Source: an uncultured Clostridia bacterium (lineage in GTDB: Bacteria > Bacillota > Clostridia > TANB77 > CAG-508). From it: DNA of 64,000 nucleotides. Each line of letters starts with the position of its first letter. Position 1 is the first letter of the stretch. The notes beneath the pieces are model-generated. The model was not told where the DNA came from and made no database searches. It was given only the letters and a program-made list of their open reading frames with translations. The position numbers were made by a program, and so were the translations under genes. The DNA lies in contig CATLHF010000007.1 in NCBI GenBank assembly GCA_949948835.1, forward strand, positions 15,354 to 79,353, given 5' to 3'. Shown here piece after piece: positions 19,636 to 28,612 of this stretch.

Positions 19636-21276
19636 ATGTCAACTTGTTTAGGATTATATATTGAAAATAATGTAATTAAATATGCCAAAGTTTCAAAAGA
19701 TAATGATAATATTAAAATTGACTCCTTTGGTATCAAATTTTATGATAAATTAAATGATGCCATAAAGCAAGTAATTGAAGAAACATATAGTTATAAAACG
19801 CCAATCAGTATTAATCTATCCAATGAAGAATACAACTATTTCTATTTGTTTAGTCTACTTAACAAAAAAGATATGCAAAATGTAATTAATACAGAATTTG
19901 AATCGATTTGTTATGATAATGGCGCAAATAAAGATGCTTTTGAAACAAGATATGTTTTAGTAAATGACTTAGAAGATAAGGAAAAAGTAAAAGCAATTCA
20001 CATATCTGCAAATAAAGCAGATATTGCTAAGAAAGAACAACAACTAGAAGGTTATCGAATTACTGCAGAATCTCCAATTGGAATGTCGATTGGTAATTTA
20101 TTAGACTATAAAGATAATGAAAATGTATTAATTGTTAATATTGAGGAAAAAACAACAATTACTACTATTATCGATAAAAAAATAGTAACAGTGCAAACCC
20201 TAGAAGAAGGGTCTAAACAAATGCTATCAAGTATTAACGCAAAAGAAAATTCATATTCTAAAGCATATGAAATTTGCAAAAATTCTACGATCTATACACA
20301 AGAAAGTAAAGACTTACAATATGAAGAAAATGAATATCTTGATGATATTATGCCTAGTTTATATAACATTGTAACGAATGTTCGTAAGATTATGGATCAG
20401 AGTCTAAATAAAATTGATAAAGTTTATATCACAGGTACTGCATCTGTTATTAATAATATTGACATCTATTTCCAAGAATATTTAAAAGATATTAAATGTG
20501 AAATTTTAAGACCATATTTTATCAATAACATACAAACAAAAATCAATATAAAAGATTATATTGAGGTGAATTCAGCAATTGCTCTTGCGCTTGATGGACT
20601 AGGAGAAGGGTTAAAAGGATTAAACTTTAAAAAAGAAACATTAAAAGATAAATTGCCAGAGTGGCTAACAATGGAAGTAGGAGCAAGTAAAACGGCTAAA
20701 ACTTCTGGAAAAAAGAAAATCAATATAAATTTTGATATGAACTTTGGGGAACGACTAGAAGCAGGAGAAATCGTTTTAATTCGACTTGCTGTTACTCTTT
20801 TTATGATTGTATTAATGTACAGTGGGGTAAGCTTGTTCTTAAATAAGGCTATTGAAAATAAAAGTAATGAAGTAAGACAAGCAACACAACAAGTAAATTT
20901 AGAAATTTCAAAAATTAATAATGACACGTCTAAGTTACGTACCAATACAAGTAAATATAAAAGTATGGTTGAAAGATTAGAACAACTAACAACAAAGGCC
21001 CAAGAAAGAAACAAAAGAAAAAATGCAATTCCAACACTTTTAAACCAAATCATGTATGTAATACCAAAAGGTGTACAAATCACTTCTATTGAAAATACAT
21101 CAGGAGATGATATTGTAATTCGTGTACAATCATTAACTTATGAACAACTAGGATATCTGAAATCAAAAATAAAAGAAGATGGAATTCTTTTAAATGTTGT
21201 ATCAGATAGTGGGCAAAAAGAGGGACAAACAGGATTAATAAAAACAGTAATTGAAGGGAAATTACCAATTCAATAA
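19636..21276 (+). CDS. pilM: Type IV pilus assembly protein, PilM-like actin-fold domain fused to a TM segment and a PilN-like coiled-coil/periplasmic part
   Basis: N-terminal CLGLYIENNVIKYAKV (PilM-type start), TM helix IVLIRLAVTLFMIVLMYSGVSLFL, coiled coil; first gene of the pilus operon. Confidence 0.55.
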   Translation: MSTCLGLYIENNVIKYAKVSKDNDNIKIDSFGIKFYDKLNDAIKQVIEETYSYKTPISINLSNEEYNYFYLFSLLNKKDMQNVINTEFESICYDNGANKDAFETRYVLVNDLEDKEKVKAIHISANKADIAKKEQQLEGYRITAESPIGMSIGNLLDYKDNENVLIVNIEEKTTITTIIDKKIVTVQTLEEGSKQMLSSINAKENSYSKAYEICKNSTIYTQESKDLQYEENEYLDDIMPSLYNIVTNVRKIMDQSLNKIDKVYITGTASVINNIDIYFQEYLKDIKCEILRPYFINNIQTKINIKDYIEVNSAIALALDGLGEGLKGLNFKKETLKDKLPEWLTMEVGASKTAKTSGKKKININFDMNFGERLEAGEIVLIRLAVTLFMIVLMYSGVSLFLNKAIENKSNEVRQATQQVNLEISKINNDTSKLRTNTSKYKSMVERLEQLTTKAQERNKRKNAIPTLLNQIMYVIPKGVQITSIENTSGDDIVIRVQSLTYEQLGYLKSKIKEDGILLNVVSDSGQKEGQTGLIKTVIEGKLPIQ

Positions 21277-21293
21277 AAGGAGACTTTTAGGGT

Positions 21294-21968
21294 ATGAGAA
21301 AAATTTTAATAATAGTATTAATTGTTCTATTATTGGTCACAGGATACTTTATGATATTTAATGGATTAAATATCATGGGGATAGAAATTTTATCCGTTTT
21401 TGGAATAAAGGATAGAAGTGATACTTTAGATAGAGAGCTTCAAGAAGTAAGTGCACTAACTAGTGTCGATAGACCAAAAGCAATGGCAGATTTAAATGAT
21501 AGTGCCAAACAATTAGTAATTGCAAAAGAAGAATATAATGATAAAATTTTATATAGTACAGAAGAAGAAATTGAGCAAGCTACACAAGGTATCCAATTTG
21601 AAATGGAATATTTATGGACAAAAATTGGAAATCACGCAACAAAAAATGGAATCGTATTAAAAATGGAAGTAAAACAAAGTACATTTGGTGTTAAGAATCA
21701 ATATGACTTACATTTTTCAGCAACAGGAAGCTATGTGTCTATTTCAGAATTTATTGCAGCACTTGAAAATGATTCTTCGTTGAACTTTAAAATTGAAAAT
21801 ACAAAAGTACAACCATTTGAGGGAAATACTGAAAATTTACAAGCAGAGTTTGATGTAAAAGAAGTTTCAATTAGAATTGATCAAATCACAAGTCCTCACG
21901 CCAATACTGCAGAAGATATGACAACGTCAAATAATCAAAAACAATCGCAAGAAGGAGGAAATTCATAA
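21294..21968 (+). CDS. PilO-like pilus assembly membrane protein
   Basis: N-terminal TM, coiled-coil segment, position after pilM/N. Confidence 0.4.
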   Translation: MRKILIIVLIVLLLVTGYFMIFNGLNIMGIEILSVFGIKDRSDTLDRELQEVSALTSVDRPKAMADLNDSAKQLVIAKEEYNDKILYSTEEEIEQATQGIQFEMEYLWTKIGNHATKNGIVLKMEVKQSTFGVKNQYDLHFSATGSYVSISEFIAALENDSSLNFKIENTKVQPFEGNTENLQAEFDVKEVSIRIDQITSPHANTAEDMTTSNNQKQSQEGGNS

Positions 21969-27242: not shown

Positions 27243-27259
27243 AAGAAAGGAGATTCTTT

Positions 27260-28612
27260 ATGGCAGTATACCGATATCGTGCGTTAACTCCTAATGGTGT
27301 TGTGGTTAGTAACCGAATTGAAGAAAACAATCGTAGTGCGGTTATTAAAAAACTAAAAAGAAATAATTTAACACCCATTAATATAACGGAACAAATTGCA
27401 ATCTCAAAAAAACCAATTAAAACGAAAAAAAGAAATATAAAAGATGTTGAAGATATCATTAAAAATGCAAACACTACGAACTTAATGGCAAACCGTGAAA
27501 AAAATAGGCAATCTTATATACAAAAGATTAATCAAGCATTATCGAAAACAGAAAAAATAACTACAAGAGATGTTGTTATTTTTACACAAAACTTTTATTT
27601 ATTAAAAAAAGCAAATTTTAATAATATTCATGCACTAAGGACAATTATTGATAGTACAGAGAATTATCTATTAAAAGGTGTTATTGAAGATATTCTAGCG
27701 GGGGTGGAAGCTGGAGAAAATATGTATACCACCATGGAATATTATTCAAATGTATTTCCTTATATTTATATTAATATGATAAAAGTTGGCGAGTTATCTG
27801 GTTCACTTACAAATTCTTTAGAACAAGCGATTAAATATTTAGATGATTCAGCAAGCATCAATAAAAAAATTAAAGGTATTTTAATCCCGAATATTGCACA
27901 ATTTGCGCTGTTACTTATCATGTTAGTAGTTGGTACTTTATTTGCCATTCCTGCAATTGAAAATGTTTTTGAAGCAGTAGGATCAACCGATAAATTGCCA
28001 GCCATTACAATATGGTTTAAAGATTTTCTAAACCTTGTGATACAACACTGGTATCTTCCAACAACAATTCTAGTAGGAATTGTGATTGGTATAATTGCTT
28101 ATATTCGTACACCAAAAGGAAAATATAATTTTGACTACTTTAAATATACCATGCCGATTTTTGGAAAGCTAATATTCTCTTTGGATTTTTCAAGATTAAT
28201 GAGAGCGATGCTTTTAAATTTAAATAATGGAATGAGAATTCAAGAGGCTTTAGAAGTAAGTAAAAATATTAGTAAAAATTATGTTATGCTTTCTTTAATT
28301 GAAACATCAATTAACAATATTTTAATTGGACAATCTTGGATTGAACCATTTGAGAAATCTGGATTACCTTCTTCAATGATTACAGAGATGTTAAAGATTG
28401 GAATGAAGACAGACTTAGCTGAAATGATGGACAAATTACTAGAATATATTGACATTGATATTGATAATACAATTCAGAAAATCATGATGGTATTACCACA
28501 AGTAGTATATAGTATTGTTGGGGTAGTGCTAATCTTCTTCGTATTAGTTGTATTAGTTCCTTGTTTACAATTATATATGGGTAACTTCTTATTTTCTGCA
28601 TATGGTTATTAA
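27260..28612 (+). CDS. pilC: Type IV pilus platform protein (GspF/PilC family)
   Basis: 450 aa; two T2SSF-like repeats with three TM segments; position after pilB/pilT. Confidence 0.75.
   Translation: MAVYRYRALTPNGVVVSNRIEENNRSAVIKKLKRNNLTPINITEQIAISKKPIKTKKRNIKDVEDIIKNANTTNLMANREKNRQSYIQKINQALSKTEKITTRDVVIFTQNFYLLKKANFNNIHALRTIIDSTENYLLKGVIEDILAGVEAGENMYTTMEYYSNVFPYIYINMIKVGELSGSLTNSLEQAIKYLDDSASINKKIKGILIPNIAQFALLLIMLVVGTLFAIPAIENVFEAVGSTDKLPAITIWFKDFLNLVIQHWYLPTTILVGIVIGIIAYIRTPKGKYNFDYFKYTMPIFGKLIFSLDFSRLMRAMLLNLNNGMRIQEALEVSKNISKNYVMLSLIETSINNILIGQSWIEPFEKSGLPSSMITEMLKIGMKTDLAEMMDKLLEYIDIDIDNTIQKIMMVLPQVVYSIVGVVLIFFVLVVLVPCLQLYMGNFLFSAYGY

Follow-up and report, generated by a model that had tools for sequence, protein, structure and literature searches.

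A type IVa-like pilus operon of uncultured gut Clostridia with Glu5-less predicted pilins and a PilD homologue lacking both catalytic aspartates

At 19636-28612 of the window, the 64,000-nt stretch of DNA from an uncultured Clostridia bacterium analyzed here, ten co-directional open reading frames (ORFs) form a type IV pilus (T4P) operon that departs from two rules stated for such machines. The glutamate at mature position +5 of the pilin (Glu5) is described as "absolutely conserved in bacterial T4P" (PMC10710030), and prepilin peptidases are said to share, without exception, a pair of Asp residues on which cleavage critically depends (review PMC10191384). In this operon the predicted major pilin has alanine at +5, and the homologue of the prepilin peptidase PilD has lost both catalytic aspartates and kept its N-terminal A24_N domain. 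Both rules are broken in ~75 gut species in which the rest of the machine appears to be under strong purifying selection. Gene content, motif loss, conservation and synteny can be read directly from the sequences, and the account that fits them best, held here with modest confidence, is a working, retractile type IVa-like pilus of monoderm, low-GC gut Clostridia, made of Glu5-less pilins and served by a "split" PilD.

The operon is widespread among related organisms. A scan covering one genome per GTDB species recovered 80 loci, all from uncultured gut metagenome-assembled genomes (MAGs), with humans (Hadza, Nepal), rabbits, mice, chickens and deer as the hosts; some of the MAGs bear the label Tenericutes, Bacilli or Erysipelotrichaceae. 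In ~75 of the 80 the operon is syntenic from end to end, at the species level among low-GC gut Clostridia (the G+C content of the window itself is 25-33%), and identity to the window across these ~75 species is 65-95% for PilT, 62-90% for PilB and 58-94% for PilC. Such synteny and identity imply strong purifying selection, and by this comparison the operon appears to be a functional system rather than a relic. Among plasmids, a megablast search with the operon gave no match.

The first-pass annotation of this DNA had proposed a T4P-like operon of ten genes with an extension ATPase, a retraction ATPase and a platform protein. The gene set and its order are borne out by the ORFs: PilM/N-like, 224-aa protein, 127-aa protein, 76-aa pilin, PilD-like, minor pilins of 143 and 142 aa, PilB, PilT and PilC (Table 1). 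Identification of the last three is robust. PilB (540 aa) matches PF00437 (E=6e-101), PF05157 (E=1e-6) and TIGR02538 (E=5e-123, with a score under the equivalog cut-off), PilT spans 339/343 profile positions of TIGR01420 (315.1 bits against a cut-off of 319.1), and PilC matches TIGR02120 (E=1e-49) and, in two stretches, PF00482 (E=3e-28). The proposed pilM/N fusion fares less evenly: its PilN part is supported by PF05137 in 14/20 orthologues (best E=3e-4), and its PilM part was not confirmed. Likewise, the 224-aa protein is "pilO-like" in position and topology but not in family, a weak PilO match being found in only 1/20 orthologues, and neither it nor the 127-aa protein matched any family in profile scans of the window proteins. 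What has to be given up is the notion of a full assembly-retraction set. With Asn at the position of the first catalytic Asp and no GxGD motif in its PilD homologue, the operon itself encodes no evident prepilin peptidase.

The PilD-like protein has at least 1355 relatives in the protein collection, and contigs of matching length recur in many cases between these and the relatives of the pilin. Translation probably starts at 22721 (Met19), giving a protein of 270 aa, the same as its homologues. Its designation as a "pilD homologue" is correct for the N-terminal A24_N domain only (PF06750, E=4e-31, the sole Pfam match), as both catalytic Asp residues are missing. The peptidase domain PF01478 (Peptidase_A24) gave no match to it even at E<=10, and NCBIfam returned no match for this protein, for the A24-only proteins or for the A24_N-pilin fusion proteins described below. 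Catalytic positions were set by alignment to canonical prepilin peptidases from plasmids and a representative library. The first Asp, which belongs to the I-D-x-E/D motif, aligns with Asn145 (23099-23101), and the GxGD motif, placed at residues 204-207, is replaced by LQSND at residues 203-207 (23273-23287). None of 76 orthologues has GxGD, and 61 of them have Tyr where its Asp would align; the first-Asp position is occupied by D (57 orthologues), E (10), N (8) or A (1), and acidic residues at both catalytic positions occur in 0/76. A custom hidden Markov model of canonical A24 C-domains finds the orthologues at E-values from 1e-12 to 1e-3 and the window protein at 7e-4; the C-terminal domain is still detectably A24-derived, although it is poorly conserved except for Glu147 and several Tyr residues.

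The N-terminal domain has been treated very differently by evolution. Residues 29-106, which make up A24_N, are ~99% conserved. Cys59, Cys62, Cys84 and Cys87 are present in 75/76 orthologues, the lone exception being an alignment gap, and the third Cys is preceded by Gly82 in 69/76 and Lys83 in 71/76. In Pseudomonas aeruginosa PilD, the four-Cys site binds zinc and is needed for N-methylation but not for cleavage, and the Gly and basic residue before the third Cys contribute to methylation (PMC3584216). Retention of A24_N at ~99% together with loss of the catalytic Asp residues points to selection on the methylase module and not on the protease, and the PilD-like protein is predicted to be protease-dead. 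Structural comparison adds little. An AlphaFold2 (AF2) model is helical with a predicted local distance difference test (pLDDT) score of 77, and Foldseek found no significant match for it in the PDB, not even to FlaK, a search that is uninformative for helical membrane proteins; a PDB sequence search with the PilD-like profile gave only spurious zinc-finger (CTCF) matches.

Sister lineages show how far the peptidase domain and the pilins can vary around this machine. The nearest GxGD-keeping relatives (P0277, P0282) encode PilMN, two small membrane proteins, PilD, minor pilins reading G↓YSLLE and G↓VTLTS (arrows mark predicted cleavage sites) and PilB. Loss of Glu5 and loss of GxGD therefore do not covary strictly, as Glu5-less minor pilins stand beside an intact PilD; the major pilin of these relatives was not recovered. 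A more distant GxGD-positive locus, L087, has the order PilB-PilC-PilD(GxGD)-PilM-pilin and a canonical pilin, MNRMIRKVQDNKG↓FTLAE. Another lineage has gone in the opposite direction. In a fusion family with 11 representatives (P0322, P0324, P0327, P0328, P0330, P0332, P0333, P0336, P0337, P0338 and P0358; for example L089:5605-6435), A24_N is followed by a Lys-rich linker and then by the class III signal and body of a Glu5 minor pilin (junction example ...KKSG↓VFVTE...), and the peptidase domain is absent. If such a protein is processed, its "leader peptide" would be a membrane domain of ~150 aa. The operon of this family is of the same type and carries Glu5-less pilins reading KKG↓ISLIVLVITIVV. 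Deletion of the peptidase domain here argues that it is dispensable in the operon-encoded enzyme, and that A24_N and its association with an acidic-+5 minor pilin are not.

The PilD-like protein could, in principle, still be a prepilin peptidase that uses non-canonical catalysis, for instance by Glu147 and another residue, and has co-evolved with G↓ITL substrates. Its membrane domain is full-length and A24-like, its gene occupies the position of the peptidase in sister operons, Gly at -1 is invariant in all substrates, and Glu147 and Lys146 are kept in 75/76 and 67/76 orthologues. Canonical PilDs, however, are also acidic at the Glu147 position (ID-x-E/D), so its conservation implies no new catalytic role, and the alignment of 76 orthologues contains no second conserved carboxylate in the membrane domain with which it could pair. 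The variation of the first-Asp position among D, E, N and A, the sister lineage that deleted the entire peptidase domain and kept operon and pilins, and the reported universal conservation and critical role of both Asp residues (PMC10191384) make this explanation unlikely.

The complete reading of the 76-aa pilin is MLKGQKG↓ITLVALVITIIVLLILAGITISLTLGEHGILN, with Ile at +1, Thr at +2, Leu at +3 and Ala at +5 (Ala12), and the reported absence of Phe1 and Glu5 from the predicted major subunit is thus upheld. In other respects the protein is laid out as class III signal peptides are, with Gly-1 at the end of a basic leader and Thr+2 and Leu+3 at the head of a hydrophobic helix. The leader is basic and hydrophilic and ends in Gly7, which shows no variation among 27 aligned sequences or among the pilins of 75 loci; Thr9, the residue at +2, where Thr or Ser is the rule, is invariant as well; and the cleavage site is followed by ~21 mostly hydrophobic residues (alpha1N, ITLVALVITIIVLLILAGITI). 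The Glu at +5 is wanting. The Pfam N_methyl motif (PF07963, IPR012902) falls under its threshold on this protein, at 18.0 bits against a cut-off of 21.2 (E=0.002).

This N-terminus is a fixed feature of the lineage. In the 27-sequence alignment the first 32 pilin residues are almost invariant, with G-1, I+1, T+2 and L+3 the same in every sequence. Among 85 major-type pilin genes from the 75 related loci, +1 is I in 66 and V in 19, and +5 is A in 80, S in 5 and acidic in none. An invariant module in 27 sequences and I/V at +1 with A/S at +5 in 85/85 genes argue that the pattern is not due to chance, and it can be written as a lineage-specific class III signal variant, (K/R/N)G↓(I/V)TL(V/I)(A/S)LV(I/V)T. 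Throughout all pilin classes of the 75 species, Gly-1 is invariant and the basic residue at -2 is (near-)invariant. An acidic +5 had been noted for one minor pilin, and it is indeed present in the 143-aa protein (G↓FTTAD), whose 52 orthologues comprise 46 with D, 5 with E and 1 with M at this position. In the 142-aa class the +5 residue is S (59 orthologues), T (4), N (2), A (2) or G (1). A pattern scan of the 64-kb window found exactly five class-III-like N-termini and no canonical FTLxE pilin.

The small size claimed for the mature subunit also holds, at 69 residues. The AF2 model (pLDDT 85) consists of helix 5-32, a break and helix 37-74; with two helices only, the mature subunit is, as modelled, a minimal all-helical pilin. 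Foldseek found no significant match to this model in the PDB and is, again, uninformative for helical membrane proteins. The protein collection holds 3546 relatives of the pilin, nearly all from Clostridia bacterium entries where labelled. Across the related loci the lengths of the pilins are bimodal, 69-94 aa in the subclade of the window and 131-212 aa elsewhere. As previously observed, the N-terminal module recurs in two unlinked genes of the window: the gene at 6157 reads MKNKSKIRVDG↓ITLIALVITIII and the gene at 50719 reads MKKTEEKG↓ITLVTLVVTIIV. The former carries the module including its extension GxNGI(I/L)N.A..AG.NY and ends in a Phage Tail Collar domain (PF07484, E=5e-17).

Three features suggest that the 76-aa protein is the major pilin: its Shine-Dalgarno sequence is perfect, a hairpin on its 3' side is conserved, and relatives carry paralogues in tandem arrays. 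A hairpin of <= -12 kcal/mol follows 67/85 pilin genes in the related loci, and its sequence variants keep pairing. Its sequence is kept in close relatives (GGCAUAUGCA...UGUAUAUGCC), and distant ones have different, equally stable stems (L003-L078 flanks). This pattern points to an RNA element under selection, for instance an attenuator or a stabilizer, and the hairpin at 22653-22698 is predicted to be a partial terminator or transcript stabilizer. The arrays are most extensive in L046, in which eight tandem paralogues of 177-189 aa occupy 5339-9940 with 96% identity over the first 60 alignment columns and 59% thereafter; three copies are found in L053, L071 and L076. Tandem arrays of this kind suggest heteropolymeric pili, or antigenic or functional variation.

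The 143-aa pilin might instead be the true fibre subunit, with the Glu5-less proteins acting as minor, tip or priming pilins in the manner of GspK or PilX. Tip subunits without Glu5 are known (PMC10191384), and the 143-aa protein has normal pilin size, the most canonical N-terminus of the set and D or E at +5 in 51/52 orthologues. On the other hand, the 76-aa gene precedes the other pilin genes, combines the perfect Shine-Dalgarno sequence with a conserved hairpin of its own on the 3' side, and has homologues that are amplified in tandem with variable C-terminal domains. Moreover, the sister lineage has the 143-aa pilin joined to the A24_N membrane domain in a single protein, which is hard to square with a bulk subunit. 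On this evidence a fibre built chiefly of the 143-aa protein seems improbable.

If the operon-encoded PilD homologue does not cut, the pilins need another peptidase or none. The invariance of Gly-1 in every pilin class argues that A24-type cleavage persists, and a candidate enzyme exists in related genomes. A 250-aa protein that matches PF01478 only was found on a contig (L091) that also carries a pilin-module gene; its VIDYR and GFGDVK motifs are intact, and it lacks a Cys loop. In such A24-only proteins the first motif reads VIDY(R/K), and their genes lie at L091:2146-2898, L093-L102:4001-4753, L106-L109:10001-10756 and L110:677-1432. The family is large and occupies, in low-GC gut bacteria, a conserved housekeeping locus, MurB-CofD-GDE-HolA-SleB-HAD-A24-PepP-EFP...GlyRS, and one variant, present on 348 contigs, is very prevalent. 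At 6-7 kb downstream of the A24-only gene lies a pilin-module gene, whose product in L106 has 578 aa and reads ...KSKG↓ITLIALVITIIVLLILAGVSIAMLTGDNGIL. L066, a MAG that bears the operon, shares MurB-CofD-GDE-HolA-SleB with L106 at 70-81% identity and then goes directly into the pilus operon, and this shared synteny marks the two organisms as close relatives. With Gly-1 invariant and an intact A24-only enzyme in close relatives, a trans-acting, methylase-less peptidase would be the most economical explanation of cleavage.

The same loci record a rearrangement. After SleB, L066 (1-6365) continues into the pilus operon and L106 (2425-10000) into HAD-A24-PepP-EFP; in most other species RsmB precedes the operon, and L066 and L106 mark a rearrangement junction at both loci.

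That the pilins are not cleaved at all, Glu5 being dispensable when no new amine is made and the seven-residue leader is kept, or that only a short, membrane-anchored pseudopilus is formed, would account for the loss of the protease site and of major-pilin Glu5 in the same lineage. It would also agree with the lack of a second peptidase in the sequence examined (the window and ~1.5 Mb of flanks) and with the fusion lineage, in which a covalent bond holds the Glu5 minor pilin to a membrane domain. Yet Gly-1 and a basic -2 that are (near-)invariant in 75 species and all pilin classes are the signature of A24 substrates, and an uncut leader with two Lys residues would enter the hydrophobic core of the filament. 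An intact A24-only peptidase with module genes nearby is present in close relatives. Furthermore, sister operons with a GxGD-keeping PilD have Glu5-less minor pilins (G↓VTLTS), so loss of Glu5 needs no loss of cleavage. Uncut pilins are accordingly quite improbable as an explanation. Least credible by far is a decaying relic whose PilD active-site loss marks lost function: the catalytic residues are gone and two other window genes, ComEC and ROK, look frameshifted, but all ten ORFs are intact in the window and in ~75 species, and conservation of 65-95% in PilT, 62-90% in PilB and ~99% in A24_N is not kept under decay.

The favored reading, a working pilus with a split PilD, can be put as a sequence of steps. 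PilB would extend the fibre and PilT retract it, with PilC and the PilM/N-like proteins forming the base. The fibre would consist mainly of the 69-residue mature helical pilin, with a neutral residue in place of Glu5. A separate A24-only peptidase, its gene located at another place in the chromosome, would cut the prepilins after Gly, and the protease-dead PilD orthologue would, judging from the conservation of A24_N, most likely act through that domain as a pilin N-methyltransferase, in pilin docking, or in both. Proteins bearing the N-terminal module (the Collar protein at 6157, the 156-aa protein at 50719 and the large ones in relatives) may be modular pilins displayed on the same machine, or its cargo. 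Cleavage in trans, methylation, the major-pilin status of the 76-aa protein and filament formation are thus what we infer from sequence comparison, and candidate functions of the pilus are adhesion, twitching or DNA uptake.

Several points weigh against this scheme. It would leave a free, possibly methylated N-terminal amine with no Glu5 partner; Thr+2, which in solved pili hydrogen-bonds the neighbouring N-terminus (PMC10710030), is invariant here. Neither the 64-kb window nor the ~1.5 Mb flanking the 80 related loci contains a second A24 gene, and a search for an A24-only peptidase and a GxGD-less PilD-like gene in one genome found no contig shared by the two (P0393, P0259, P0247 and P0482 have conserved contexts). 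To our knowledge, methyltransferase activity of A24_N has never been shown apart from a peptidase domain. At the base of the machine, the PilM and PilO identities are weak. A weak precomputed PilM_2 match on one more distant PilM/N homologue (L089) is the sole basis for a PilM-like N-terminal half; comparison of the PilM/N profile with the PilM_2-positive L087 protein by hhalign was not significant (E=0.04); and PDB sequence searches with the profiles of the PilM/N and 224-aa proteins yielded nothing meaningful. The Foldseek structure searches give no support either way.

A more far-reaching version can be advanced tentatively, and with more doubt than confidence: the two activities of PilD have been uncoupled and the Glu5 salt bridge dispensed with, such that a protease-dead, A24_N-only enzyme methylates or docks pilins already cut by a separate A24-only peptidase, the D/E5 minor pilin is its dedicated partner (the pair being fused in a sister lineage) and the fibre is made of minimal helical subunits free of Glu5. 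Should that prove correct, the operon would supply both the first stand-alone prepilin N-methyltransferase and the first bacterial T4P with a Glu5-less major subunit. Because both rules are broken in a conserved machine, the operon offers a natural experiment on the role of Glu5, for which charge neutralization, subunit docking and register are candidates, and on the role of pilin N-methylation, the methylase module seemingly having been kept alone, apart from cleavage. There is also a practical side. The organisms are abundant, uncultured gut Clostridia, and for a comparable uncultured clade a link between pilins and immune effects in the host has been described (PMC11680825), which makes the surface filaments of these organisms of practical interest.

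Table 1. Features of the operon and related elements in the window
Feature	Position	Strand	Description
Promoter-like site TTGACT-16-TAAAAT	19486..19513	+	upstream of first gene; consensus scan, pattern match only
PilM/N-like protein, 546 aa	19636..21276	+	transmembrane segment near residue 385; PilN-like C-terminal part, PF05137 E=0.011
224-aa single-pass membrane protein, PilO position	21294..21968	+	syntenic in ~75 loci; putative identity
127-aa single-pass membrane protein	21968..22351	+	synteny conserved; no family match
Shine-Dalgarno sequence AAGGAGG, perfect	22400..22406	+	8 nt before pilin ATG; read from sequence
Predicted major pilin, 76 aa	22415..22645	+	leader MLKGQKG then ITLVALVITIIVLLILAG
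20-bp perfect stem-loop	22653..22698	+	directly after pilin stop codon; dG -26.7 kcal/mol, z=-8.2
PilD-like ORF, 288 aa	22667..23533	+	A24_N Zn-finger intact, A24 membrane domain degenerate
Minor pilin, 143 aa, G↓FTTAD	23543..23974	+	sole pilin class with acidic +5
Minor pilin, 142 aa, G↓LTITS	23986..24414	+	no acidic +5
PilB-type extension ATPase, 540 aa	24497..26119	+	MshEN-like N-terminal domain
PilT-type retraction ATPase, 366 aa	26142..27242	+	TIGR01420
PilC/GspF-type platform, 450 aa	27260..28612	+	PF00482, two T2SSF stretches
Terminator-like palindrome	28619..28650	.	operon end; 12-bp stem between T-runs
Unlinked modular pilin-like gene, 266 aa	6157..6957	+	N-terminal module and Phage Tail Collar domain
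Unlinked pilin-like gene, 156 aa	50719..51189	+	KG↓ITLVTLVVTIIV, Thr at +5

Some features bear on the regulation of the operon. Promoter-like sites of the type listed in Table 1 were, in total, not above shuffled expectation in the consensus scan. The N-terminus of PilB (residues 1-60, 24497-24700) scores 30.5 bits (E=2e-7) on the MshE-related motif for binding of cyclic di-GMP (c-di-GMP), whose cut-off is 38, and the pilus may therefore be under c-di-GMP control at the protein level. No Rfam family was found in the whole 64-kb window, and hence no c-di-GMP riboswitch ahead of the operon.

The neighborhood has peculiarities of its own. The gene at 6157 is unusual as a modular pilin bearing a phage receptor-binding-type domain, and directly before it, with a 3-nt gap, is a BofC-like, sporulation-type gene (PF08955, E=7e-7; both within 5558-6957). 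Its assignment to a Tad-like cluster of the TANB77 type, introduced below, was considered and rejected, as the scanned window ORFs include no Tad genes and its neighbours are an amidohydrolase, NlpC/P60, ComEC and the BofC-like gene. ComEC, 15 kb upstream of the operon (3022-5362), has DUF4131 and Competence domains at 3034-4539 and Lactamase_B fragments in shifting frames at 4484-4855, 4831-4986 and 4979-5359; three changes of frame seem to break up its C-terminal metallo-beta-lactamase domain, owing either to decay into a pseudogene or to a fault in the assembly. The ROK-family gene right after PilC (28613-29555) has one frameshift near 28872-28894, resulting in ORFs of 82 aa and 184 aa; L103 and L104 have uninterrupted orthologues of 301-302 aa.

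Among known systems, the closest are the monoderm type IVa pili of Clostridioides difficile, Clostridium perfringens and Streptococcus sanguinis, which likewise have PilB, PilT, PilC, a fused PilM/N-type protein, several minor pilins and a PilD homologue in one cluster, as well as the likeness of an MshEN-like PilB N-terminus. The canonical relative L087 is of this kind. The operon described here differs from them in its major pilin, where I/V takes the place of Phe at +1 and Ala that of Glu at +5, in a PilD without both catalytic Asp residues and, in this subclade, a major pilin of 69 mature residues with no beta-sheet head. With PilD/XcpA (MEROPS A24A; P. aeruginosa PilD), the PilD-like protein shares an A24_N domain with CxxC-x21-CxxC, Gly-Lys before the third Cys, an eight-helix membrane architecture (as helices in the AF2 model) and a place in the pilus operon; it differs in the absence of PF01478, the Asn for the first Asp and the lack of GxGD, and is predicted to be protease-dead. 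In TadV/CpaA and the archaeal FlaK and PibD, which are peptidase-only A24 enzymes, cleavage and methylation are separable. The 250-aa A24-only protein of relatives has the same architecture, but here the mirror image exists too, with the methylase module kept and the protease lost.

The first-pass annotation had compared the Glu5-less pilin with archaeal class III signal-peptide proteins. Archaeal type IV pilins and archaellins do share the class III signal, basic -2, Gly-1 and absence of Glu5, but this proves to be a resemblance only, because the pilin keeps the bacterial pattern of Gly-1, Thr+2 and Leu+3, PilB, PilT and PilC are of bacterial types, and PilT is present at all. The motor model of the archaellum (FlaI/ArlI-type) matches PilB at E=5e-19, compared with E=5e-123 for bacterial PilB, and the TadA-family model of Tad (type IVc) systems at only E=3e-9. 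Very short, all-helical mature subunits are also found in Geobacter PilA-N (61 aa) and in Flp/Tad pilins. These keep Glu5, however, and Flp pilins use TadA/TadB/TadC and not PilB/PilT/PilC. The modular pilins PilB and PilC of S. sanguinis resemble the protein at 6157 in joining a pilin module to a functional C-terminal domain, as may the 578-aa protein of L106 with the same module; they differ in that the domain grafted at 6157 is another one and its gene is unlinked to the pilus operon, its incorporation into the pilus being a prediction only.

Literature searches brought up no prior account of this operon, of Glu5-less bacterial major pilins or of a protease-dead PilD with its methylase module kept. 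On the pili of comparable uncultured gut Clostridia the sole paper found describes the TANB77 Tad-like pilus cluster, which comprises CpaB, TadZ, CpaE, TadA and a TadB/C fusion (Kim et al. 2024, PMC11680825) and is a different machine, absent from the window ORFs scanned. Taken together, these comparisons indicate that the system is homologous to monoderm type IVa pili, although it lacks Glu5 in the pilin and the Asp dyad in PilD, which are treated as defining, and that it is, judged by its ATPases, neither archaeal-type nor Tad-type.

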